Part shown: positions 5,942 through 64,000 of the stretch, piece by piece
Position numbering within the stretch: position 1 is the first letter of the stretch
How the letters are laid out: each line of letters opens with the position of its first letter
Assembly: GCA_964553795.1 (NCBI GenBank)
Contig: CAZKMR010000001.1
Coordinates: 19,230 to 83,229, forward strand
Source: an uncultured Bifidobacterium sp.
Lineage (GTDB): Bacteria > Verrucomicrobiota > Verrucomicrobiia > Limisphaerales > JADLHS01
Length of the DNA: 64,000 bases
Reading direction: 5' to 3'
Position numbers and translations under genes: made by a program
The notes under the pieces: model-generated
What the model was told of the DNA's origin: nothing
Databases searched by the model: none
Seen by the model: the letters and a program-made list of their open reading frames with translations, nothing else

Positions 5942-6018
5942 CGTGCGGTTATTAGTCGTCGTGTTTGCGACTCGAATTGTTTTTGCAATTCGCTGAGCCG
6001 CCCCACAAAATTGCCCGC

Positions 6019-6393
6019 GTGACTTCGCCTCTGGCAATTCTGTTCTACGAAGATTTGATTCCCGGCAGCCAACTCGTCAATCGGTTGCAGGACCAACGCT
6101 ACCGGGTTCATGTCGCCGGTTCGCCGGAGGAACTGCTTTCAGTGGCAGCCAGCGCCGGGCCCATGTTAATTCTTGCGGATCTGGTTTCCAAACGGACGGA
6201 TGTTTGTGCGCTCATTCAGAAGTTACGAACCGATGCCGCCACGGCACACGTGCCCGTGATCGGTTTTGCGGACGAAGCGGAGTTGGATTTGCAGGCTCGC
6301 GGCAAGGCCGCTGGCGCAGCGTTGGTCGTGTCGGACGCGGCCATCATTCCGCATCTGAACCAGTTCATTGAACGGGCGTTACAGGTGGAATGA
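6019..6393 (+). CDS. Single-domain CheY-like receiver protein (atypical)
   Basis: Receiver-like pattern: AILFYEDL (acidic pair), MLILADL (phospho-Asp position), PVIGFAD. The usual K-P motif is not evident. The start is uncertain: GTG 6019 is preferred over TTG 5965. Confidence 0.5.
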   Translation: MTSPLAILFYEDLIPGSQLVNRLQDQRYRVHVAGSPEELLSVAASAGPMLILADLVSKRTDVCALIQKLRTDAATAHVPVIGFADEAELDLQARGKAAGAALVVSDAAIIPHLNQFIERALQVE

Positions 6394-6424
6394 CCCCCTG
6401 GGACACAGGGGCTCAAACAAAGGC

Positions 6425-6452
6425 TTGACCTCGCAAGAATTGTTTCTATTGT
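6425..6452 (+). promoter_or_regulatory. Putative sigma-70-type promoter of cspA (TTGACC-N16-TATTGT)
   Basis: TTGACC at 6425-6430 and TATTGT at 6447-6452 are separated by a 16-nt spacer. This would give a 5' UTR of roughly 100 nt, typical of cold-shock genes. Confidence 0.35.
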
Positions 6453-6560
6453 CGCATTTGTTGCCGTAATCAGACACCCAATCACGCATAAACCGCACGG
6501 ATGCGATTATTGTTTGCTGTGGTTTGAGGGTGACGATTCGGTGACATTCAGGAGAGAAAT

Positions 6561-6764
6561 ATGGCTAGTGGTAAAGTTAAGTGGTTCGACAATAAGAAAG
6601 GGTTTGGCTTTATCGCCCAGGAGACCGGGCAGGACGTATTCGTGCATCACACGTCCATCATGGGTTCAGGCTTCAAAACCTTGATTGAAGGTGAAGTCGT
6701 AACCTTTGAGGTAATCAGCAGTGACAAAGGTCTCAAAGCCCAAAATGTTCAGCGCAATTTATAG
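6561..6764 (+). CDS. cspA: Cold-shock protein, CspA family
   Basis: 67 aa with RNP1/RNP2 motifs KGFGFI and VFVHH. AGGAGAG lies upstream of the ATG. Confidence 0.95.
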   Translation: MASGKVKWFDNKKGFGFIAQETGQDVFVHHTSIMGSGFKTLIEGEVVTFEVISSDKGLKAQNVQRNL

Positions 6765-6841
6765 CGCCTGAACTTCAGGGTTTGCTGCCAAGCGGGAAAA
6801 ATTGCGTCGCTCTTACCGACGCCCTCCGGTATCTTACACCC

Positions 6842-8038
6842 ATGCCGGAATCTGCCGTCGCACCTGTCACCAGCCTCTATGTTCACGTTCCCTTCTGCGC
6901 GCAGAAGTGCGAATACTGCGCATTTTTTTCCGAGGCTTCCAGTGGCGAGTTGATCAATCGCTACACGCGGGCCCTCCAACGGGAACTGGAATTGGTCGCG
7001 GCAGACTTGTGCCCGCGGACCGTATTTTTTGGCGGCGGTACGCCCTCCTTGCTGAACTTGCGCCAATGGGAAGCCGTGCTGGGGATGATGGAGCGACTGA
7101 ACTTGCTTGGCGCTGAAGAGTTCTCCGTCGAATGCAATCCCGCCACGGTCTCACTCGACAAAGCAAAATTATTGCGCGACTTCGGCGTGAACCGGATTTC
7201 GATGGGGGTGCAATCGCTGGATGAGCAGTTGCTCGAACGCCTCGGACGCGTGCATTCGCGGGAAATGGTTTTCAAGTCATTCGATATTTTGCGTCAGGCC
7301 GGATTCGACAATGTGAACGTGGACCTCATGTTTGCGATCCCTGGTCAAACGATGGCTATCTGGCAAGCCACACTCGATGAAGCACTGGCCTTAGGCAGCG
7401 AACACCTTTCCTGTTACGAAGTCATTTATGAGGAAGACACGCCGTTGTTCGCGCAAATGAATGCGGGAGAGTTCGATGTAGATGAAGATCTCGCGTGCGA
7501 CATGTTTGAAGCACTCGTGGTGCGTTCTGCCGCCGCGGGATTCCACCAATATGAAATCGCCAATTTCGCGCGGGACGTCCGATTAAACGATTTCGCCGCG
7601 GTTGGCCCGGCAACCGTCGATCCGCAAATCCCGCGACTCGCGTGCCAACACAACATCAACTACTGGCGCGGCGGCAATTTTTATGGCCTTGGTCCGAGCG
7701 CGACAGGCTATGTTCGCGGCGTGCGGACGAAGAATTGGTCCAACACACAACTCTACTGCGAGCAACTGGAAAAAGGCCGGCGAGCCATCGAATCGCGCGA
7801 GGAATTTCCGCCTTTGAAACGCGCCGGCGAAACGGCGGCCTTCGGATTGCGGATGAATGCCGGTTGGCCCTACGCCGAATTTCAACGGGTGACGGGTCAT
7901 GACTTGCGTCGAGATTGGGCGGCGGACATGGACTCGCTGGTGCAAAAAGGTTGGGGCATTCGCTCGGCCGACCGGTTTCAGTTGTCGTCGCGCGGATTGC
8001 GTTTTGCAGACGCCGCCGCCGAAGCTTTTCTCCGCTGA
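6842..8038 (+). CDS. hemW: Radical SAM HemN-like protein / heme chaperone HemW
   Basis: LYVHVPFCAQKCEYCAFF (CxxxCxxC radical SAM motif), GGGTPS, and a HemN C-terminal region. Internal ATG 6842 is preferred over the longest ORF start at 6782. Confidence 0.85.
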   Translation: MPESAVAPVTSLYVHVPFCAQKCEYCAFFSEASSGELINRYTRALQRELELVAADLCPRTVFFGGGTPSLLNLRQWEAVLGMMERLNLLGAEEFSVECNPATVSLDKAKLLRDFGVNRISMGVQSLDEQLLERLGRVHSREMVFKSFDILRQAGFDNVNVDLMFAIPGQTMAIWQATLDEALALGSEHLSCYEVIYEEDTPLFAQMNAGEFDVDEDLACDMFEALVVRSAAAGFHQYEIANFARDVRLNDFAAVGPATVDPQIPRLACQHNINYWRGGNFYGLGPSATGYVRGVRTKNWSNTQLYCEQLEKGRRAIESREEFPPLKRAGETAAFGLRMNAGWPYAEFQRVTGHDLRRDWAADMDSLVQKGWGIRSADRFQLSSRGLRFADAAAEAFLR

Positions 8039-8042
8039 AATC

Positions 8043-8741
8043 ATGGAACAACTGCCGCCGCTGACTCCGGCCACGCTTTATCTGGTGGCAACGCCCATTG
8101 GCAATCTCGAAGACATCACGCTTCGGGCGTTGCGCGTCCTGAAGGAATGCGACGTGGTGGCGGCGGAAGACACGCGCCGTTCCGGCCAACTGCTGAAACA
8201 CTTCGGGTTGTCCAAACCGCTGCTGAGTTATTTTCAGTTCAACGAAGCCAAACGGAGCGAAGAAATCCTCGCTCGACTGCAACGCGGCGAAAAAATCGCC
8301 CTCGTCACGGATGCGGGCAGCCCCGGCATCAGCGATCCCGGGGAGCGCATCGTGAAAGCGGCCATTGCGGCGGGTTTCCGGGTGGAAGCCGTGCCTGGCG
8401 CATGCGCTCTGGTGGCGGGTTTGACAGCCAGTGGATTGCCGACGGATGAATTTCACTTCATCGGATTTCTCCCGCACAAATCCGGGCAACGGCGGAATAA
8501 ACTGGAATCGCTCCAATCGGTAGCCGGAACGCTGGTGCTTTACGAATCGCCGTATCGCATCGAGAAACTCCTCGGTGAATTGAGCGAAGTTTATCCGGAA
8601 CGCATCGTCGTGCTCGCGCGGGAATTGACGAAAAAATTCGAGGAATTTCGGCGCGGCAAACCCGCTGAACTTCTCGAGCAGTCCAAGACCCGCAGCTTGA
8701 AAGGCGAATTTGTCGTGCTGATCGCGCCCGCCAGCGACTGA
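8043..8741 (+). CDS. rsmI: 16S rRNA (cytidine1402-2'-O)-methyltransferase
   Basis: LYLVATPIGNLEDITLRALRVLKECDVVAAEDTR and TDAGSPGISDPG are tetrapyrrole-methylase-fold RsmI signatures. The start is ATG 8043. Confidence 0.9.
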   Translation: MEQLPPLTPATLYLVATPIGNLEDITLRALRVLKECDVVAAEDTRRSGQLLKHFGLSKPLLSYFQFNEAKRSEEILARLQRGEKIALVTDAGSPGISDPGERIVKAAIAAGFRVEAVPGACALVAGLTASGLPTDEFHFIGFLPHKSGQRRNKLESLQSVAGTLVLYESPYRIEKLLGELSEVYPERIVVLARELTKKFEEFRRGKPAELLEQSKTRSLKGEFVVLIAPASD

Positions 8742-52663: not shown

Positions 52664-53866
52664 GTGTCTGAAGCGAAAGCACAATCCAATCTAGTCGAGC
52701 CAAGCGTGTCTCCGTCCCGTTCGCTGCCAATCTTGGGCATTGTCGGTGGCGGACAACTTGCCAAGATGATTGCGCAAGCGGCGCGGCAACTCGGCTGCGA
52801 CGTTGCGGTGCTCGAACGCCAGGCTCATAGCCCGGCAGCGGACCTCACCACGCATCACATCGTCGGCGATTGGGATGATCCCGAAACCTTGATTGAGCTG
52901 GGGAAAGTTTCCGATGTCGTGACGTTGGAAAACGAATTTGTCTCCGCAGATAGTCTGGCGGCGCTGGAGCGGGCCGGGCATGCGTTGTGGCCCACGGCGG
53001 CGAACATTCGCGTGGTGCAGGACAAGCTGACGCAGAAGCAGGCGTTCGTGGACGCCGGTCTGCCCGTGCCGCGTTTCATGGCGGTGGCGAATCAGGCTGA
53101 GGTGGCCGCTGCCGCTGAAAAGCTTGGCTGGCCGTTGCTGCTGAAGAAGCGGCGTTGCGGTTATGACGGCAAAGGCAATTTTACCGTGCGCTCGACGGCG
53201 GACATTGAAACCGCGTGGCAGCAACTCGGCGGTGACAGCAATGAGCTTTATGTCGAGGAGTTCTGCCGGTTCACGGCGGAACTAGCCATTATGATCACGC
53301 GCGGGCGCGACGGCACGAGCGTGAGTTATCCCCTCGTGGAAACGATTCAGCGTGATCACATTTGTCACGTCGTCAAAGCACCGGCGGCAGTTTCGCCGGG
53401 CATTGCCGCAATTGCGGCGGACATTGCGCAACGCGCGGTCGCTGCGGTGAACGGCGTTGGCAGCGTGGGCGTGGAAATGTTTCTCACCGCCGACCGCAAC
53501 ATTTTGATCAATGAAATGGCCCCGCGCGTGCACAACTCAGGTCATTACACCATTGAAGCGTGCGCGTGTTCGCAGTTTGAAAATCACGTTCGGGCGGTGA
53601 TGGGATGGCCGTTGGGTTCGCCGGCACTGCGCGCGCCCGCGGCGGTGATGGTGAATTTGCTGGGTGCGGCGAAAGGCTCGGGCAATCCGCATGGAATGAG
53701 CGCCGCGTTACGAGTTGCCGGTGCCAGCGTTCACGTTTACGGTAAAACTTCCAGTTCGCCCGGGCGCAAGATGGGACACATCACCGCGTTGGGCGAGACG
53801 ATGGAACAGGCGTTGGAAAGCGCACAGGCCGCGACGGCAGCGATTCGTTTTGGAGGAACAAATTGA
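52664..53866 (+). CDS. purK: N5-carboxyaminoimidazole ribonucleotide synthase
   Basis: [13 protein letters not shown], an ATP-grasp fold ([21 protein letters not shown]) and [12 protein letters not shown]. The start is uncertain: GTG 52664 or GTG 52706. Confidence 0.85.
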
Positions 53867-54365: not shown

Positions 54366-55355
54366 ATGGGCTTCTTCGATGCCATCCAAGCGAATCTGCT
54401 GACACCGGCAGTGTTGTTCTTTGCGCTCGGGTGCATTGCCGCTCTGGTGAAAAGCGATCTGCGGTTTCCCGAGCCGTTGTACATCACGCTGACGATCTAT
54501 CTGCTGGTGGCCATTGGATTCAAGGGCGGGGTGGCGATTTCGGAAGCCGGCCTGCGGGCCGTTTGGTTGCCATCGGTGGCGGCGTTGATTATCGGGACAT
54601 TGATTCCACTGTGGACGTATCCGTTGCTTCGCTACGTCGGAAAATTGTCGCCGGTAGATGCTGCGGCGATCGGCGGACACTACGGCTCAGTGAGTGCGGT
54701 GACGTTCATAGCCGCGACAAATTTTCTCAAGTCCGTTTCCGAGCCGCATGAGAATTATGCGTCGGCGTTTCTCGCGGTGATGGAATCGCCGGCGATAGTC
54801 ATCGCGGTGCTGCTGGGCAAGATGGCGACGCGCGACGCGAAGTCCGATTTCAAGGAAACGATGAAAGTGGCGCTGCATGAATCCATGCTGGGGCGCAGCG
54901 TGGTGTTGCTGGTCGGCGCGCTGATCATCGGATTTTTGTGTGGCAAACGCGGGGCGGAAACCACGGCGGGCTTGTTTGTGACGCCGTTCCAAGGCGTGCT
55001 CGCGTTGTTTCTTCTGGAGATGGGCACAATCGCCGCGCGACGTTTTCAGGATTTGCGCAAGGTCGGTTTGTTCCTGCTGGCGTTCGGCGTCGTGATGCCG
55101 CTAATTCACGGCATGATCGGCATCTGGCTCGGGAAAACGGTGGGCTTGAGTCTGGGCGGCGCGACGTTGTTTGGCGTGTTGACGGCGAGTGCGTCGTACA
55201 TAGCTGCTCCGGCGGCGATGCGGTTGTCGTTGCCGGAAGCGAATCCCACGCTGTACCTGACGGCGGCGTTGGCGATTACGTTCCCGTTCAACATCGCATT
55301 TGGCATTCCGATTTATTACGCGGTGGCGAAATGGCTGTTTGGAGGAAGCGTATGA
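54366..55355 (+). CDS. sbtA: SbtA-like sodium-dependent bicarbonate transporter family permease
   Basis: Polytopic protein of about 330 aa starting MGFFDAIQANLLTPAVLFFALGCIAALVKSDLRFPE, matching the Sbt_1/DUF897 pattern as I remember it. It starts 2 nt after purE. Confidence 0.75.
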   Translation: MGFFDAIQANLLTPAVLFFALGCIAALVKSDLRFPEPLYITLTIYLLVAIGFKGGVAISEAGLRAVWLPSVAALIIGTLIPLWTYPLLRYVGKLSPVDAAAIGGHYGSVSAVTFIAATNFLKSVSEPHENYASAFLAVMESPAIVIAVLLGKMATRDAKSDFKETMKVALHESMLGRSVVLLVGALIIGFLCGKRGAETTAGLFVTPFQGVLALFLLEMGTIAARRFQDLRKVGLFLLAFGVVMPLIHGMIGIWLGKTVGLSLGGATLFGVLTASASYIAAPAAMRLSLPEANPTLYLTAALAITFPFNIAFGIPIYYAVAKWLFGGSV

Positions 55356-55675: not shown

Positions 55676-56335
55676 GTGCAAAAGCTCATCGACGGAGTTC
55701 ACAAGTTTCGTAACGACGAGTTCGGCAATTACCGGAAACTGTTTCGCAAGCTGTCGCAGGAAGGGCAGAATCCGCACACGCTATTCATCACCTGTTCGGA
55801 TTCCCGCGTGTTGGCGGAGTTGATTACGCAGAGCAAGCCCGGGGATTTGTTTGTGGTGAAAAATGTCGGCAACATTGTCCCACCGGCGGAATCCACCGGC
55901 AGCACCAACTCGACCGCGGCGGCCATTGAATTCGCCGTCGAATCCCTGAAGGTCAGTGACATCGTAGTGTGCGGCCACACGCAATGCGGGGCGATGGAGG
56001 CGCTGCTGCGCGGACTGAAAGAGCCGGAGAGCCAGCCGCATTTGCGCGATTGGTTGTCACTGGCGTTGCCGGTGCGCCAGACGATTCAGACGCAATACAC
56101 CCACCTGAAAAGTCATGCGGAGCAAACCACCGCGGCGGGGCAGGAGAATGTCCTGTTCGCGCTCGATAACCTGCACAGTTACGCCTGCGTCCAACGCCGG
56201 TTGAACGACGGTTCCCTGCGCTTGCACGGCTGGTTCTTCAAGATCGCGACGGCGGAACTCTTTGCCTTTGATCCGGAGACGAAACAGTTCCTGCCGCTGG
56301 GAACAGATCTGGCCGCGCAAAGCCAATCCGATTGA
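55676..56335 (+). CDS. can: Beta-class carbonic anhydrase
   Basis: Zinc ligand motifs CSDSRV and GHTQCGAM. GTG start 21 nt after sbtB. Confidence 0.85.
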   Translation: MQKLIDGVHKFRNDEFGNYRKLFRKLSQEGQNPHTLFITCSDSRVLAELITQSKPGDLFVVKNVGNIVPPAESTGSTNSTAAAIEFAVESLKVSDIVVCGHTQCGAMEALLRGLKEPESQPHLRDWLSLALPVRQTIQTQYTHLKSHAEQTTAAGQENVLFALDNLHSYACVQRRLNDGSLRLHGWFFKIATAELFAFDPETKQFLPLGTDLAAQSQSD

Positions 56336-56474: not shown

Positions 56475-56879
56475 ATGCCGCAAAAGCCGATTGAACTTAC
56501 CGAAGCCGAATGGACTGTCATCAAAGCCGTTTGGGAAGGCGAACCCTGCACCGCGCCCGCCATTCAGGAGAAGTTGTTTGCCGAAACGGCGTGGACTTAT
56601 TCCACGGTGCGGACGCTGATGGATCGCATGGTGACGAAAGGGTTGCTGGCGGCGGAGAAGGAAAAGAACGTGACGTTGTATCGCTCGGTGGTGACGCGCG
56701 CGCAGGCGCAGCGCGGGGAGCTGCTCTACGCGTTGAAACATGCGTTCAATGGCGCGCTCACGCCGATGGTGCAATGCCTGCTCGATACGAAGGAGATTAC
56801 CAGGTCTGAACTGGACCAACTCAAGCAACTCATCGCCGCGCACGAAAAGGGTCGCGGTAAAAGTGGGAGGAAATCATGA
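56475..56879 (+). CDS. BlaI/MecI/CopY-family transcriptional repressor
   Basis: Winged-helix pattern LTEAEWTVIKAVWE...WTYSTVRTLMDRMVTKGLL..EKEKNVTLYRSVV. An ATGA overlap joins it to the sensor gene. Confidence 0.85.
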   Translation: MPQKPIELTEAEWTVIKAVWEGEPCTAPAIQEKLFAETAWTYSTVRTLMDRMVTKGLLAAEKEKNVTLYRSVVTRAQAQRGELLYALKHAFNGALTPMVQCLLDTKEITRSELDQLKQLIAAHEKGRGKSGRKS

Positions 56880-59575
56880 ATGGCCTGTTGCGCTGGCTGG
56901 CGTCACCCGAATGGGCGCAACTCATCAGCGCATTTTTGCATTCGCTTTGGCTGGGAGCAGTCGTGGCGGTTGGTTTGGCGGTTGTGCTGCGGCGCGCCGT
57001 TAATCCCGTAATCCGCTATCTTTGCAGTCTGGCGGCTTTGGGACTGTTGCTGGGGTCTGGAGTGTTGGCGTGGGCGATTTTGAGCGCGCCGACTGTTCCA
57101 GTGGCAAATTCACCGCTGGTTGAGATAGTCGAGTCCGATCTTCCGAGTTCGGCCAGTGCGCCGACATCGTTTGATGTCGCCGATGAAGTGGTCGTAGTGG
57201 GACGGATGACTGTCCCCGAAGCGCCAACGCAATGGACAGCGTGGCTGGCGGGAATTTGGTTGCTGGGAGCTGCGGTGATGTTGCTGCGGGCGGGAATCAA
57301 GGTCGCGGGCGCTGAGCAACTGCGACGTTCCTGTCAGCCGCTGGCAGACGAACAAATGGCCGCATTGGTGGCCGAGGCGTGTCGCGCGGTAGGCCTGGCG
57401 CGACGCATCCGTGTGGCAGTCACGGAACGGCTGACTTCTCCGGCAGTAGTGGGGATAATTGTGCCGACCTTAATCCTGCCGCTATCGGTCTTCACGACAT
57501 TGACGCCGACCCAGATTCAGTTTGTCTTGCTGCACGAACTCGCGCACATCCGGCGCGGTGATTATCTCGCCAATTTATTCCAACTCTTTGCGGAAGCGTT
57601 GTTGTTCTTCAATCCTGCGGTGTGGTGGATCAGTCATCAAATCCGGCGCGAGCGCGAAGCGTGTTGCGATGCCCTGGCGATCCAATTGAGCGGCGCGCCG
57701 ACGGATTATGCAAAAACGTTAGTACAGGTGGCGGAAAACATTTTGCAATCTGCCCCCGCCGCAGCGCCTGCTTTTGGCGGCTACGGACAAGAAAACTCAT
57801 CGCTGGCGGATCGGGTGCAGCGATTGCTCGTTCCCGGCTATCGACCGACTCTGCACCTTACTTGGCGCGCAATGCTCGGCTCATTATTCGTGGGTGCCGT
57901 GATACTGGTTGCTTCCGCATACGGCACTCGAAACACGGTGGGGGCAATGATCTCATCTGCTCAACCGACAACAAATTATCCGCCGGTGTCAGACGTTTCA
58001 CTGATCACTGCTGCTGAAGGGAAACCTCGAACTCCTTCAAACGTGAACACAACCATACCCGTTCTGCGTGATTTACCACTCCTCAGCGGCCTGTTTACCA
58101 GCGAATCGCAAGTTCAACGCGAGGACGGTAAAGATGCATTCGGCATGAATGATTTGATGGTTGATAGCCAACAACGAAGCCACCAGCAATTTTGGTATCG
58201 GTCTGGCGATACCAATGTGCCGAAGCAATCCACCAACAGCGCCCCCACCGAGCCTTTGGCTACGCGCATGTTCAAAGTTGATATGGGGCAGATTTACTCC
58301 GCCTTAGGGTTGGCTTTGGATGGAACAAACAGCTTGAGTGCAACTAACTTGCATAATGCGGTTCGCGACTACTTCAGCAAGGCTGGAGTCAATCTAGATC
58401 CCCTGTTGGGCAAGAGCACCTACTTCAATTTGAGTCGGGGTGAATTGTGGGTTCGAGCTACACGCGAAGAACTGGACCTGGTTGAAGATATATTGCATTC
58501 GATGGCAGTTGCGACCGTGCGCGAATCCGAGATTTCAAATTCCGATACGCTCAAATCCCGAACTGAACATTCTGGTGGTCGCGCCATCGAATCGCTCCAA
58601 AACCAAGTCCCAACGAAAGCGTTAGTAACGCGAACTTTCAAAGCCAGTCCAGAGGCTTTAGCCGAAACTCTTGCGATAAGCGGATTTGAAACTGCGGATA
58701 ACGGGAAAACTAATCTTGCAGAAAGCTTGCGCGCTTTTCTGAAATCGATGGGCGTAGATCTTTCACTGCCCAAGTCTATGTACTATAACGAACGAGCGGG
58801 AGGACTTTTTGTTCGGGCGACGGCGGAAGATCTGGGCGTGATTGAGCAATTGCTTGAAGTCGTGAATCAACAATCGCAGCAAGTGAACATCAAGGCAATG
58901 TTTGTGGAAGTACCCGCGGATAAGTATGACGCGACAGAAATAGACCGCTTGCTGTTTTCCAATTTGAATAAAGCTGCAGGTGACAATGAACGTCAGTCGT
59001 TTGGCATTTTGACGGAGAGCGAATTTGCAAAGGTGCTCAAGAATCTCAGAGAGAGATTTCACGCTGAAATCGTGGCTGCTCCTCAGGTCACGACGTTGAG
59101 CGGCAGGCAGGCGCAAATCCAGATGGCAGACATCAAAACCATATTCACCGGCATGACGGCGGTAGTGACAAATGGGGTGACCAACTACGTCTATGAAACC
59201 GAAACCAGGCCTTTTGGACCAGTATTGGATTTGTTGCCGACGGTTTCTGGCGATGGAACTGCCGTTCAAATGACTGTAATTCCAAGCCTGACAGAGTTTG
59301 GGGGGTACACAAAATCAGGAGATAACCCATACTACGACTCCAATTATTATGACGCACTGCCAGTTCCCGGTGCCAATTCAGCAACGCTTCCGTTGCCGGT
59401 TTTTCGTGTTCGCAAGATGACGACGGTAACAACGGTTAAAGATGGTCAGACGTTGGTATTCGGAGGTTATGAAGCTAAGCCCCCTCTTCTTGGTTTATTC
59501 AAACGTGTGCGTTTCACCTTTGTAACGCCAACAATCCTTGATCCCGCAGGCAATCGTTTGAATCCCCCAAAATAA
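56876..59575 (+). CDS. BlaR1-type M56 sensor metalloprotease fused to two secretin-N-like repeats and a secretin core domain
   Basis: The N-terminus has TM helices and an HELAHIRRGDY (HExxH) M56 domain, followed by a further TM helix. Residues from about 462 form two repeats of about 85 aa (TRMFKV...WVRATREELDLVEDIL / TRTFKA...FVRATAEDLGVIEQLL). Residues 670-899 are secretin-like (VNIKAMFVEV..., APQVTTLSGRQAQIQ, VTTVKDGQTLVFGG, PLLGLF). Confidence 0.8.
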   Translation: MNGLLRWLASPEWAQLISAFLHSLWLGAVVAVGLAVVLRRAVNPVIRYLCSLAALGLLLGSGVLAWAILSAPTVPVANSPLVEIVESDLPSSASAPTSFDVADEVVVVGRMTVPEAPTQWTAWLAGIWLLGAAVMLLRAGIKVAGAEQLRRSCQPLADEQMAALVAEACRAVGLARRIRVAVTERLTSPAVVGIIVPTLILPLSVFTTLTPTQIQFVLLHELAHIRRGDYLANLFQLFAEALLFFNPAVWWISHQIRREREACCDALAIQLSGAPTDYAKTLVQVAENILQSAPAAAPAFGGYGQENSSLADRVQRLLVPGYRPTLHLTWRAMLGSLFVGAVILVASAYGTRNTVGAMISSAQPTTNYPPVSDVSLITAAEGKPRTPSNVNTTIPVLRDLPLLSGLFTSESQVQREDGKDAFGMNDLMVDSQQRSHQQFWYRSGDTNVPKQSTNSAPTEPLATRMFKVDMGQIYSALGLALDGTNSLSATNLHNAVRDYFSKAGVNLDPLLGKSTYFNLSRGELWVRATREELDLVEDILHSMAVATVRESEISNSDTLKSRTEHSGGRAIESLQNQVPTKALVTRTFKASPEALAETLAISGFETADNGKTNLAESLRAFLKSMGVDLSLPKSMYYNERAGGLFVRATAEDLGVIEQLLEVVNQQSQQVNIKAMFVEVPADKYDATEIDRLLFSNLNKAAGDNERQSFGILTESEFAKVLKNLRERFHAEIVAAPQVTTLSGRQAQIQMADIKTIFTGMTAVVTNGVTNYVYETETRPFGPVLDLLPTVSGDGTAVQMTVIPSLTEFGGYTKSGDNPYYDSNYYDALPVPGANSATLPLPVFRVRKMTTVTTVKDGQTLVFGGYEAKPPLLGLFKRVRFTFVTPTILDPAGNRLNPPK

Positions 59576-59737: not shown

Positions 59738-61288
59738 TCAACCCACGCCCATGCCGATGAGGAATTCGATGTTGCTCTTTGTCTTCTTCAGTTTGCCCAG
59801 CAGCAGTTCCATGGATTCCACGGGCGGCACGCCGGTGAGGGCGCGACGCAACAGCATGACCCGGGTGTATTCATCCGGGTGATAGAGCAATTCTTCTTTG
59901 CGCGTGCCGGAGCGTTCGATGTTGATCGAAGGGAAAATGCGGCGATCCACGAGCGAGCGGTCCAGGTGGACTTCCATGTTGCCCGTGCCTTTGAACTCTT
60001 CAAAGATGACTTCATCCATGCGGCTCCCGGTATCCACGAGCGCGGTCGCCATGATGGTGAGCGAGCCGCCTTCCTCAATGTTACGCGCCGCGCCGAAGAA
60101 GCGTTTCGGTTTGTGCAACGCATTCGCGTCCACACCACCGGAGAGAATCTTGCCGGAGTGTGGTTGCACGGTGTTGTAAGCGCGGGCCAGACGTGTGATG
60201 GAGTCGAGCAGGATGACGACGTCGCGCTTGTGTTCGACCATGCGCTTGGCTTTTTCGATGACCATTTCGGCCACCTGCACGTGACGTTCCGGCGGTTCGT
60301 CGAACGTGGACGAAATCACTTCCGCGCCCACGCAAGTGCGTTCCATGTCGGTGACTTCTTCGGGACGTTCGTCAATCAACAGGATGAACAAATACGTCTC
60401 CGGGTTGTTCTTGAGAATCGCGTTGGCGATTTTCTGCATCAACACCGTTTTGCCCGTGCGCGGCGGGGCGACGATCAAACCGCGGGTGCCTTTGCCGATG
60501 GGGCACACGAGGTCGAGCACGCGCATGTTCACTTCTTCAGGCGTCGTTTCGAGCAGCAAGCGCCGATTCGGGAAGAGCGGCGTGAGGTTTTCGAAATGCG
60601 TCTTGTCCTTTGCCTTGTCCGGTTCTTCGGCATCGACAGCTTCAACTTTAAGCAGCGCAAAGAATTTTTCTTTATCCTTCGGCGGACGGATCTGGCCGGC
60701 GATCAAATTGCCGGTCTGCAAATCGAAGCGCCGAATCTGCGACGGCGACACGTAAATGTCTTCCGGGCACGAGAGGTAATTGAAACTTTGCGAGCGGAGG
60801 AAGCCGTAGCCGTCGGGCAAAACTTCGAGCACGCCTTCGGAGAACAACACGCCGGCGCGTTCGGCGTTTTTCTGGAGGATGTGGAAAATGACCTCGTGCT
60901 TGCGCATCGTGCCGTAGTTTTCCACGCCCAAATCCTTGGCCATGTTGTTCAGGTCGTTCATCTGCATGCCCTGAAGTTTGGCGATGTTGAGCGAATGAAC
61001 GATCTTGTCGCGCTCACCGCGGCGGCCGTAATTCTGCTGTTGCGGCGATTCGGCGGGTTGCTCGGGAACGGAAGCTTCAATCGGGCGCGTGGGCGGTTGC
61101 AGCGGCGCATCCTCGTCCACCGGTGGGGGTGGCGGCGGGGGAGACGCTTTGGGCGCCGGCGCGGGCGAAGGGTCAACGGCTTCGGGGGCGAGTTCCGGCG
61201 GCGCGGGGGGAGGGGATAAATCGAGATCTTCGCTGGGCTTGGCTTTCGGTGCTTTTGCTTTGGCCTTCTTGGTAACGGCTTTTGCCAT
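59738..61288 (-). CDS. rho: Transcription termination factor Rho with a Lys/Pro/Ala-rich N-terminal extension of about 95 aa
   Basis: [15 protein letters not shown], Walker [35 protein letters not shown] and a C-terminal [11 protein letters not shown]. Confidence 0.95.
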
Positions 61289-61439
61289 AAAATAGTCCTC
61301 GGTACTTAAATTTTACGTGAGCGGCAGGAGCAACCCAATTGCAACTTCCCGTCCAATCCCTGCTTGGACGAGCGAGCCCCGGATAAGTTCAAAATGGAAT
61401 GGCTACCGTTCGGAGAGCGCGAGCTTCAACTTGTTGGTA

Positions 61440-63614
61440 TCAATACGGCAAGGGGAATCTCGCAGTCAGTTCGCGGACACGTTGACGCACCTTGGCGATA
61501 GCGTCAAGGTTTTTGATGTCCATCAACACTTCGCTGATCATGTCAGCGATGGCCGCCATTTCGGTCTCGTTCATGCCGCGCGTGGTGCAGGCTGGAGTGC
61601 CGAGCCGGATGCCGCTGGCCTGGAACGGAGAGCGGGTCTCAAACGGAATCGTGTTCTTGTTCGTGGTGATGCCGGCCTCGTCGAGCGCGAGCTGACATTC
61701 TTTGCCGGTCAGTCCTTTCGCGCCCACGTCCACGAGCATGAGATGGTTGTCCGTGCCACCGCTGATGAGGCGGAAGCCGTTGCGTTTCATGCCATCCGCC
61801 AAGGCGGCGGCATTGGTCACAATTTGTTGCTGATACGTTTTGAAATCCGGTTGCGCGGCTTCGTGAAAGCAAACGGCTTTGGCGGCGATGACGTGCATGA
61901 GCGGCCCGCCTTGAATGCCGGGGAACACCTGCGAATCAATTTCCTTCGCGTACTTTTCTTTGCACAAAATCAAACCACCGCGCGGGCCACGCAGGGTTTT
62001 ATGCGTGGTGGTAGTAACAAAGTCAGCATGCGCCATCGGACTGGGATGCACGCCGGCGGCAACGAGACCGGCGATGTGCGCGATGTCGGCGAGCAGATAC
62101 GCGCCGACTTCCCGGGCGATTTCGCCCATGCGCTTGAAATCAATGATGCGCGGATAGGCGCTGGCGCCGACCGTGATCATCTTCGGCTTGTGTTCGCGCG
62201 CCATCCGGGCGAGTTGATCGTAATCAATGCGCTCGTCCTCTTTGCACACGCCGTAGTGGACGATTTCGAAAAACTTTCCGGAAAAATTGGCTTTGTTGCC
62301 ATGAGTCAAATGGCCGCCGTGGCTCAGGTCCATGGTGAGCATGCGGTCGCCGGGTTTGAGGAACGCGAAATAAACGGCCATGTTCGCGCCGCTGCCGGAG
62401 TGCGGCTGCACGTTGGCGTGTTCGGCGCCGAAGAGTTGTTTGGCGCGATCTATCGCCAGTTGCTCGACGGTGTCCACGTTTTCGCAGCCGCCGTACCAGC
62501 GTTTCTTGGGATAGCCTTCGGCGTATTTGTTGGTGAGCACGGAACCTTGCGCTTCCATGACCGCCGGGCTGGTAAAGTTTTCGCTGGCGATGAGTTCGAT
62601 GTTTTCCTGCTGGCGCAGGCGTTCGCTTTCAATGGCGTTGGCGATTTCAGTGTCAACGCGGTTCAATCGGAGTTCAGGTGACATGGCTTTTTCTTCCATC
62701 TTGTGGACGCGCCGTTCGTGGCGGCCGCCCTCAAATTCAGTGTTCAAAAAGTTATCGAGAATCTGTTTGGCCAGATCGGCCGGGGTAAATTTCCCGGAGA
62801 GACACAGCACATTCGCATCATTGTGCTTGCGCGTCAGCAGGGCGGAGTCGGCGTCCGAAACCATCGCGGCGCGAATGCCTGGAACTTTATTCGCCGTGAT
62901 GCTCATGCCGATGCCAGTGGTGCAAACCAGCAACCCGACTTCGGCCTTATGTTCGGCCACGCTGTTGGCCACCAGCAACGCGTAATCCGGATAATCCACT
63001 GAGTCTTTGCCGTGCGTGCCGAAATCGTGAAAGGAAACGTTCCGTTCCCGCAGATACTTTTTCAGTTCTTCCTTGAGATCGAATCCGCCGTGGTCCGCAC
63101 CAATCGCGACGCGCGCCGTTTGCCCGGCGGCCACGGCCTTGATGGTCTGGGTGGTTTCGCCTTGATTGATGAAGCGCAACAACGAAGCAATGCCTTGTTC
63201 GATTTGATCGCGGCAATGCAAATAAACTTCGTACGAACCGCCGATCGGATCGCTGATGTCCTTCTCGAACGGATCGAGCGTGTCGTCGAACTCGCGCAAC
63301 AGGAATGTTTTTTCCGCCGCCTGCGGGTAGAGCAGGGCAATGGTGTCCACGTGGCTGTGCGTCATGCCGAGGATGTAATCGGCTTGCTTGACCATTTCGG
63401 CGGTGAGCATGCGACTGCGTTGCCGCGTAATATCTACGCCGATCTCGCGCATCGCCTGAACGGAATACGTGCTCGGGGCCTGCCCATCCACCGCGCCCAA
63501 TCCTGCGGACACCGCGCGATAGTCGCTGCGGCCCTGCGTGGCGTGGCGAAAGAGCGCCTCGGCCATGGGACTGCGGCAGATGTTACCCGTGCAAACGAAC
63601 AAGAAAGTTTTCAT
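61440..63614 (-). CDS. glyA: Tri-domain fusion: low-molecular-weight phosphatase + ribose-5-phosphate isomerase B + serine hydroxymethyltransferase
   Basis: Residues 1-150 carry CTGNICRS (CX5R-S) and DISDP. Residues about 167-306 carry [28 protein letters not shown] and GGRHERRV. Residues about 311-724 carry [26 protein letters not shown] and the PLP-lysine motif [13 protein letters not shown]. No stop codon separates the domains. Confidence 0.85.
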
Positions 63615-63773
63615 TCGAGCGACGGAGAGTTTGGTTGTGTCAGCCGAATCGTCAACGGTAAATAACGGTGTCGCTGCGGCAGAGCGGGCAAAGCCGCGTT
63701 TTTGCCGCGGATAAAATCATTGCGAAAGTCCCACCCGGTCGCACGTGGCAGGGGTGGTAGTTCGGCAAAACCA

Positions 63774-64000
63774 TCAATTGGCCGGAGCCGCGTTCGTATT
63801 TTTCCTGGCGGGTTTTTTGATGGGCCACTGAGGGGATTCGGCGCGGGCGGTTTTCAAATAGGTTTCGAACTTTGTCACAATCGCCGGGTTTTGCCTCGCC
63901 ACGTTCTCCTTTTCGCCGGGATCAGCTTTAAGATTGTAAATCTCGAGCGGCTCGTCGGCCTGGGGACGAACGGCTTTCCAATCGCCGGACCGCGCGGCTT
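63774..64000 (-). CDS. C-terminal end of a sulfatase-family protein, 5' part outside the window
   Basis: My own minus-strand translation gives ...DWKAVRPQADEPLEIYNLKADPGEKENVARQNPAIVTKFETYLKTARAESPQWP...*. The LYDL..DPGE.NNLA-type tail is typical of arylsulfatases. It is absent from the ORF track because no start codon lies in the window. Confidence 0.55.
   Translation of the reverse strand, partial: AARSGDWKAVRPQADEPLEIYNLKADPGEKENVARQNPAIVTKFETYLKTARAESPQWPIKKPARKNTNAAPAN

Follow-up and report, generated by a model that had tools for sequence, protein, structure and literature searches.

The window analyzed here is a stretch of 64,000 nucleotides from contig CAZKMR010000001.1. Close to its end, on the reverse strand, lies a gene in which a domain of the LMW-PTP family (protein tyrosine phosphatases of low molecular weight), ribose 5-phosphate isomerase B (RpiB), and serine hydroxymethyltransferase (SHMT, GlyA) follow one another within a single open reading frame (ORF; Table 1). 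The frame starts with ATG, codes for 724 amino acids (aa), and contains zero internal stop codons. Three Pfam profiles were matched over their full length: LMWPc (PF01451; residues 4-146, profile positions 1-144 of 144, 111 bits), LacAB_rpiB (PF02502; residues 169-306, positions 1-138 of 138, 188 bits), and SHMT (PF00464; residues 317-693, positions 1-399 of 399, 562 bits). This three-domain match is far beyond chance and recurs across genomes. The single fused polypeptide described in the initial annotation was thus confirmed, and the catalytic signatures that it had called intact were all found where it had placed them. These comprise (i) CTGNICRS (residues 8-15) and DISDP (119-123) in the phosphatase; (ii) GADHGG (172-177), CTTGIG (231-236), RKHNDANVL (262-270), and GGRHERRV (296-303) in RpiB; and (iii) residues 341-352 and 537-547 in SHMT. 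A protein 100% identical to the fusion is present in NCBI on a 165-kb contig (P0001). Judging from sequence, we regard it as very likely that the locus holds a genuine, selection-maintained gene for one polypeptide of ~79 kDa combining a YwlE-like LMW phosphatase, RpiB, and SHMT.

Table 1. Features of the fusion gene and its neighbors (positions in the window)
Feature	Position	Strand	Extent	Basis or content
Whole fusion gene, phosphatase-RpiB-SHMT	61440..63614	-	one ORF, 724 codons + stop	
LMW-PTP-family (YwlE-like) phosphatase domain	63171..63614	-	residues 1-148	Pfam PF01451
Linker 1, variable and disordered	63114..63170	-	residues 149-167	identity, dN/dS, AlphaFold2
RpiB domain	62697..63113	-	residues 168-306	Pfam PF02502, TIGR01120
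Linker 2 (junction), holds non-conserved Met311	62667..62696	-	residues 307-316	fixed length
SHMT (GlyA) domain	61443..62666	-	residues 317-724	Pfam PF00464, NF000586
Transcription terminator Rho	59738..61288	-	516 aa	Pfam Rho_N, Rho_RNA_bind, ATP-synt_ab
BlaR1-type/secretin protein	56876..59575	+	899 aa	BlaR1-type M56 peptidase/sensor (residues 24-314), C-terminal secretin (729-865)
Beta-carbonic anhydrase	55676-56335	+		
SbtA-type bicarbonate transporter	54366-55355	+		
PurK	52664-53863	+		

A search of 5.8 billion proteins, clustered at 90% identity, returned at least 120 clusters that were 79-100% identical to the query, 706-733 aa long, and equipped with the same three Pfam domains. They originated from NCBI, JGI, ENA, and Logan assemblies, and the named members were metagenome-assembled genomes (MAGs) of Verrucomicrobiota. 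A collection with one genome per species yielded 529 stretches encoding a relative, the best 80 of which were inspected. Residues 1-724 were matched contiguously in 80/80 of these loci, and each showed a stop-free frame, an ATG seven codons upstream of the P-loop, and a P-loop of the form CTGN[I/V]CRS. The three-domain architecture, sought in the databases, was thus found in the protein clusters as well as in every inspected genome. The record titles of the best 80 referred to Verrucomicrobiota, 'subdivision 3', Limisphaerales, or Pedosphaera, and the fusion is a clade-wide trait of Verrucomicrobiota subdivision 3 (Limisphaerales/Pedosphaera). Counts out of 81 given below refer to the orthologue set including the window's own sequence.

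In database entries the fusion goes by the name of one part only, 'ribose 5-phosphate isomerase B' in some and 'glycine/serine hydroxymethyltransferase' in others. Fusions of '708 aa' that start at Met17 and lack the P-loop were considered as variants and rejected. They reflect systematic start errors of the gene caller, since the upstream ATG and the P-loop are encoded in the DNA of 80/80 loci, including L001, whose contig also carries P0024. Calls from Met17 (MAEALF...), with the catalytic P-loop cut off, were seen for P0022, P0024, P0098, P0121, P0122, P0179, and L001; upstream of Met17, MKTxLFxCTGNxCRS is encoded in all 80 inspected loci. A number of MAG loci with this Verrucomicrobiota-type gene at 77-91% identity (L001, L006, L008, L011, L012, L016, L052, L065, L067, and L080, and also L039, L047, L051, and L064) bear titles such as 'uncultured Bifidobacterium/Bifidobacteriaceae', 'Candidatus Binatia', 'Acidoferrum', 'Sulfotelmatobacter', or 'Limnocylindrales', which are probably taxonomic mislabels in public records.

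Selection on the parts of the protein was compared by the ratio of nonsynonymous to synonymous substitution rates (dN/dS; Nei-Gojobori method, 985 pairs). As dS was near saturation, the ranking is more trustworthy than the absolute values, which were 0.135 for the phosphatase, 0.21 for RpiB, 0.09 for SHMT, 0.71 for linker 1, and 0.54 for linker 2. Mean pairwise identity among the 81 orthologues was 0.76, 0.63, and 0.88 for the three domains, compared with 0.21 in linker 1 and 0.32 in linker 2. Every domain is thus under purifying selection and the linkers are relaxed. Linker 1 ranged from 11 to 20 residues, and linker 2 had exactly 10 residues in 80/81 sequences. A structure predicted by AlphaFold2 from a 51-sequence alignment, in which three-domain, two-domain, and standalone forms were mixed, contained three confident domains, RpiB and SHMT among them (mean predicted local distance difference test score, pLDDT, 83.9; predicted template modeling score, pTM, 0.66). 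Linker 1 was disordered at residues 152-164 (pLDDT below 50), the D-loop at 112-124 was flexible, and the junction was modeled as a helix (298-308), a break (309-312), and a second helix (313-320). No confident packing between domains was obtained for the monomer.

Within the phosphatase domain, the P-loop is C8-T-G-N-I12-C13-R14-S15 and the general acid is D122 in DISDPIGG. C8, R14, S15, D122, and P123 were each kept in 81/81 sequences, and the domain belongs to the LMW-PTP superfamily by its PF01451 match, its P-loop, and its D-P loop. The closest solved structures were the YwlE arginine phosphatases 4PIC, 1ZGG, and 4KK3 (E-values of 1e-23 to 1e-24), with weaker matches to LMW-PTP structures of the Wzb type (~1e-14). 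A Thr at P-loop position 5 confers the preference for phosphoarginine in YwlE, PtpB, and DARP, and replacing it by Ile shifts activity toward phosphotyrosine (pTyr) and p-nitrophenyl phosphate (PMC8001253, PMC7772506). At this position (residue 12), 42 of the 81 orthologues had Ile, 39 had Val, and 0 had Thr, so that classing the domain with the arginine phosphatases is not warranted; as far as its residues tell, it is a YwlE-like scaffold without the defining mark of that group. Neither did it resemble canonical pTyr LMW-PTPs: the corresponding NCBIfam models scored 57 bits against a cut-off of 243 (NF007520) and 60 against 247 (NF008486), and the loop following the general acid reads D-P-I-G-G, with no Tyr, versus D-P-Y-Y in canonical members. 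All specific phosphatase and arsenate reductase (ArsC) models stayed far under their cut-offs. A solved protein of the LMW-PTP/YwlE-like type is deposited in the PDB as 'Ribose 5-phosphate isomerase RpiB' (4EGS), a name that reflects annotation spill-over between these two neighboring or fused families.

The RpiB domain passed the TIGR01120 rpiB equivalog model (179.8 bits, cut-off 138.65); the LacA/LacB and actinobacterial ribose 5-phosphate isomerase models remained under theirs. Its catalytic set, D174/H175, C231 (C231-T-T), H264/N265, R298, and R302, is present, aligned with 3HE8 and 1O1X, and kept in 79-81 of the 81 sequences (C231 and H175 in 79/81). For SHMT, NF000586 scored 652 bits (cut-off 335), the lysine binding pyridoxal phosphate (PLP), K539 in the T-T-T-H-K motif, was conserved in 81/81 sequences, and so was each of H538, T536, D510, H513, H435, Y364, E366, S344, R545, and R679. 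Both domains in the window can be assigned to their families, and catalysis is predicted for them.

Degenerate forms were detected in two places. In one sublineage (L017 and L020, with the match at 6001-8175 in each, and P0085), the catalytic Cys and His of RpiB are lost, GADHGG being changed to GSDREG or GADQEG and CTTGIG to GASS(T/I)G, with the phosphatase and SHMT domains intact. This RpiB is nevertheless under purifying selection (dN/dS of 0.13 between L017 and L020), which suggests a non-catalytic role. The distant three-domain relatives P0179 (683 aa) and P0271 (702 aa), from ENA/JGI metagenomes and 39% identical, have an Ala-rich, clearly dead SHMT domain with a Pfam score of only 130 bits. 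There the PLP-lysine motif has become VGGTGATMRGPGTG, with THK replaced by GAT and the PLP lysine lost; RpiB is intact, and the specificity position of the phosphatase P-loop (CTGNSCRS) is taken by Ser. Both lineages hint at a role beyond catalysis. The 64-kb window yielded no further copy of the phosphatase, RpiB, or SHMT domain.

When 1.84 billion representatives (50% identity) were searched exhaustively, the fusion architecture proved rare but not unique. Among the representatives were three-domain proteins (P0121, 61% identity; P0122, 45%; P0179, 39%) and two-domain RpiB-SHMT proteins (P0123, P0124, P0126, P0138, and P0193), whose architecture was checked by Pfam. Named members of the two-domain form belong to Victivallales and Kiritimatiellia (e.g. 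the database entries MBQ6924650.1 and MBR6076496.1). In Kiritimatiellia this form is abundant (at least 120 clusters), and no phosphatase gene adjoins the Kiritimatiellia two-domain gene. These proteins resemble the fusion in carrying RpiB on the SHMT N-terminus via a short junction, in their intact motifs, and in coming from the Planctomycetes-Verrucomicrobia-Chlamydiae (PVC) superphylum, but have no phosphatase domain at their N-terminus and share ~54-58% identity with the window protein. Full-length alignment and the presence of all catalytic residues also link the fusion to the standalone SHMT (3PGY, 1KKJ, 1DFO) and RpiB (3HE8, 1O1X, 1NN4) structures, which are single-domain proteins; no solved chain spanning two of the three domains occurred among the aligned structures. 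The closest standalone SHMT had been expected to be verrucomicrobial and turned out to be acidobacterial. It comes from Vicinamibacterales, where a separate rpiB gene of 150 aa lies 82 nucleotides (nt) upstream on the same strand. This pair shows the same gene order without fusion and is not a direct ancestor. The unfused acidobacterial rpiB (L085, 4466-4918) is of the Glu type ('GGSGQGEQ', like actinobacterial RpiB) and the RpiB of the fusion is of the Cys type; adjacency of rpiB and glyA therefore covers both RpiB subtypes.

The same three families also occur in the same order and on one strand in Firmicutes, in the neighborhood ywlE(ptpB)-rpiB(ywlF)-glyA, the gene order of Bacillus subtilis (ywlE-ywlF-glyA). 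The likeness extends to the phosphatase domain of the fusion, which is most similar to YwlE. Unlike in the fusion, they are separate genes and proteins there, and YwlE and PtpB are phosphoarginine phosphatases with Thr at P-loop position 5, in contrast to Ile/Val in the fusion clade. In Staphylococcus aureus, ptpB adjoins glyA (PMC8001253). The initial annotation had proposed that this synteny collapsed into one polypeptide; this is plausible given the acidobacterial rpiB-glyA pair, the S. aureus ptpB-glyA pair, and the two-domain forms as possible intermediates. Most likely, neighboring genes became fused through loss of a stop codon and the intergenic spacer. RpiB and SHMT would have been joined at least once in PVC bacteria, with the phosphatase added N-terminally in the lineage studied here.

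Other SHMT fusions (DHFR-SHMT, DHFR-Tmk-SHMT, FolB-SHMT, MeaB-SHMT, SHMT-GcvT) likewise join SHMT to a metabolically related neighbor, in line with Rosetta-stone logic. Their partners are mostly folate, one-carbon, or thymidylate enzymes, unlike RpiB and the protein phosphatase, which are not folate enzymes. In metagenomic representatives (P0136, P0139, P0150, P0202, P0234, P0261, P0267) we observed fusions of DHFR-thymidylate kinase-SHMT, DHFR-SHMT, FolB-SHMT, and MeaB-SHMT, and also NRPS(C-A-T)-SHMT (NRPS, nonribosomal peptide synthetase), SHMT-adenylation domain, and SHMT-GcvT.

Regarding function, each domain would most likely act as an independent catalyst on the common chain. RpiB would interconvert ribose 5-phosphate and ribulose 5-phosphate, and SHMT would convert serine and tetrahydrofolate (THF) into glycine and 5,10-methylene-THF. 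The phosphatase would hydrolyze a protein phosphomonoester, probably not phosphoarginine, because its specificity residue is Ile/Val and not Thr. There is no intermediate common to the three reactions, so substrate channelling is not expected; the benefit of the fusion probably would lie in obligatory 1:1:1 co-expression and co-assembly. Ribose 5-phosphate leads to phosphoribosyl pyrophosphate, and SHMT provides glycine and one-carbon units for the purine ring. The logic of pairing RpiB with SHMT may thus be that purine and thymidylate precursors are supplied jointly. RpiB and bacterial SHMT each form homodimers whose active sites sit at the dimer interface (1NN4, 1O1X, 1DFO, 1KKJ). Given this, and given a junction of ~10 residues whose length is fixed, the fusion is probably a symmetric dimer or else a dimer of dimers, to which the phosphatase would be tethered by the flexible linker 1.

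Several rival explanations were weighed against the reading of a genuine three-enzyme gene. A sequencing or assembly artefact, in which three adjacent genes were wrongly joined by a frameshift or by loss of a stop codon, is an a-priori worry for a lone metagenome-type contig and has no positive support here. It is refuted by the frame being kept in 80/80 independent species-level genomes, which stem from many projects and were sequenced with many technologies; in addition, the protein clusters stem from four repositories, and the linkers evolve like coding sequence (frame retained, linker 2 fixed at 10). Its probability is negligible. It also appears improbable that the product of relevance is free GlyA, whether started internally at Met311 or released by proteolysis at the junction. 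The initial annotation had pointed to the Met codon at 62682-62684, preceded by GGAAGA, as a start from which free GlyA could still be produced. Position and letters were right, and the ATG does lie in frame behind an A-rich stretch, but the internal start found no support: Met311 was present in 1/81 sequences, that one being the window's own, and 60/81 had no Met within residues 307-318. GGAAGA is accounted for by the codons of the conserved K-M-E, as part of ATG-GAA-GAA (M306-E307-E308), and ATGGAN is conserved because K-M-E/D belongs to the C-terminal helix of RpiB. A strict Shine-Dalgarno (SD) 5-mer preceded the candidate junction starts in 0/81 sequences, and the idea that an internal start or an SD is conserved at the junction was rejected on these counts. 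Since an SD-like 4-mer was also absent from positions -18..-4 of the authentic start (63615..63632 in the window and its equivalents; 0/79 loci), arguments from SD motifs are uninformative in this clade, and their absence is no bar to initiation; translation initiation here appears to be SD-independent, at least for the fusion gene. The RpiB part aligned end to end with full-length 3HE8, 1O1X, and 1NN4, nearly to their C-termini, and the SHMT part with the bacterial SHMT structures 3PGY, 1KKJ, and 1DFO from their residue 5-8 on, so that the junction corresponds approximately to a native C-terminus followed by a native N-terminus, with no extra linker. No conserved cleavage motif was seen in the junction, whose residues vary freely, and its fixed length of 10 residues suggests that the intact chain is structurally constrained there. 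The sequences thus lend no support to a conserved, selected internal start, and sporadic initiation at Met311 may occur in this one organism.

It is highly improbable that the N-terminal domain is a thioredoxin-coupled ArsC or a small-molecule (sugar-phosphate) phosphatase instead of a protein phosphatase. The fold family includes ArsC, weak NCBIfam matches to ArsC models exist, and the physical link with a sugar-phosphate isomerase invites the idea. ArsC of the pI258 type uses a relay of Cys10, Cys82, and Cys89; the only cysteines of the domain are C8, C13, and C134, the Cys82/Cys89 relay is absent, and the ArsC models scored 54 bits against a cut-off of 174 (TIGR02691) and 57 against 215 (NF010053). 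Protein phosphatases of the YwlE type were the best structural relatives, by 10 orders of magnitude in E-value. The ArsC reading was rejected on these grounds, and the earlier description of the domain as 'arsenate phosphatase-like' found no support. Less easily dismissed, although still unlikely, is a regulatory device, in which the tethered phosphatase would act on RpiB, SHMT, or a partner, or in which RpiB would serve mainly as an oligomerization hub, yielding a regulated precursor-supply complex. The greater conservation of the phosphatase compared with RpiB (identity 0.76 versus 0.63; dN/dS 0.135 versus 0.21), the purifying selection on a catalytically degenerate RpiB, the retention of a three-domain protein with a dead SHMT in another lineage, and the fixed length of the junction would fit such a device. 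Against it stand the Kiritimatiellia two-domain forms with no adjacent phosphatase gene, the lack of confident inter-domain packing in the AlphaFold2 monomer (pTM 0.66), and the possibility that degenerate domains have simply been in decay since another copy of the gene assumed their role. It is similarly doubtful that the fusion goes beyond co-expression, with the RpiB dimer as the structural hub of an SHMT-RpiB assembly and with the tethered YwlE-like phosphatase, whose specificity residue is altered, linking protein-phosphorylation signaling in cis to the supply of purine and thymidylate precursors (ribose 5-phosphate, glycine, one-carbon units). If true, this would explain why RpiB is kept under selection when catalytically dead as well as the long-standing synteny of phosphatase, rpiB, and glyA.

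Some observations weigh against the preferred reading of one polypeptide with three active enzymes. As the true start itself has no SD, internal initiation that is independent of a leader may be possible, as may cleavage of the chain by proteases. In the wider family, the RpiB-dead (L017, L020, P0085) and SHMT-dead (P0179, P0271) sublineages show that three active enzymes are not universal. Finally, a neighbor-joining (NJ) tree of SHMT domains, in which the core three-domain clade is monophyletic (bootstrap 1.0), joined three-domain and two-domain forms with a support of 0.12 and placed P0122 elsewhere; a single origin of all fused forms was therefore not supported by this tree (12% bootstrap, P0122 apart).

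Full-text literature searches returned no description of a phosphatase-RpiB-SHMT fusion. The protein combines three well-known enzymes in a new architecture and is not a new kind of system; as the enzymes are textbook ones and fusion of neighboring genes is common, no paradigm is changed. Its value lies in a clean 'Rosetta-stone' signal, a covalent link kept by selection over hundreds of species, which implies a need for having a YwlE-like phosphatase, RpiB, and SHMT together at a fixed stoichiometry. This supports a functional reason behind the synteny also seen in Firmicutes. The fusion furthermore offers a tractable protein for asking which role a YwlE-like phosphatase plays beyond the McsB/ClpC system of arginine phosphorylation, and it is relevant to annotation, as databases name it by one part and certain gene callers cut into the P-loop of the phosphatase.

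Downstream of the fusion, rho starts 151 nt past the stop codon on the same strand. The same arrangement was found in 48/60 loci with enough flanking sequence, usually at a distance of 60-240 nt. Promoter and terminator scans gave results at chance level, with no above-chance terminator between the fusion and rho, and Rfam detected no RNA element (e.g. ZTP, THF, or glycine riboswitches) in 61200-64000 at E<=1. The Rho protein of the window has a Pro/Ala/Lys-rich N-terminal extension of ~100 residues ahead of its Rho_N domain. Farther away and on the opposite strand, the genes between 52664 and 56335 possibly form a CO2/bicarbonate supply cluster beside a carboxylating purine enzyme. The combination of a BlaR1-type M56 domain and a secretin within one protein of 899 aa (56876..59575) is an unusual pairing.

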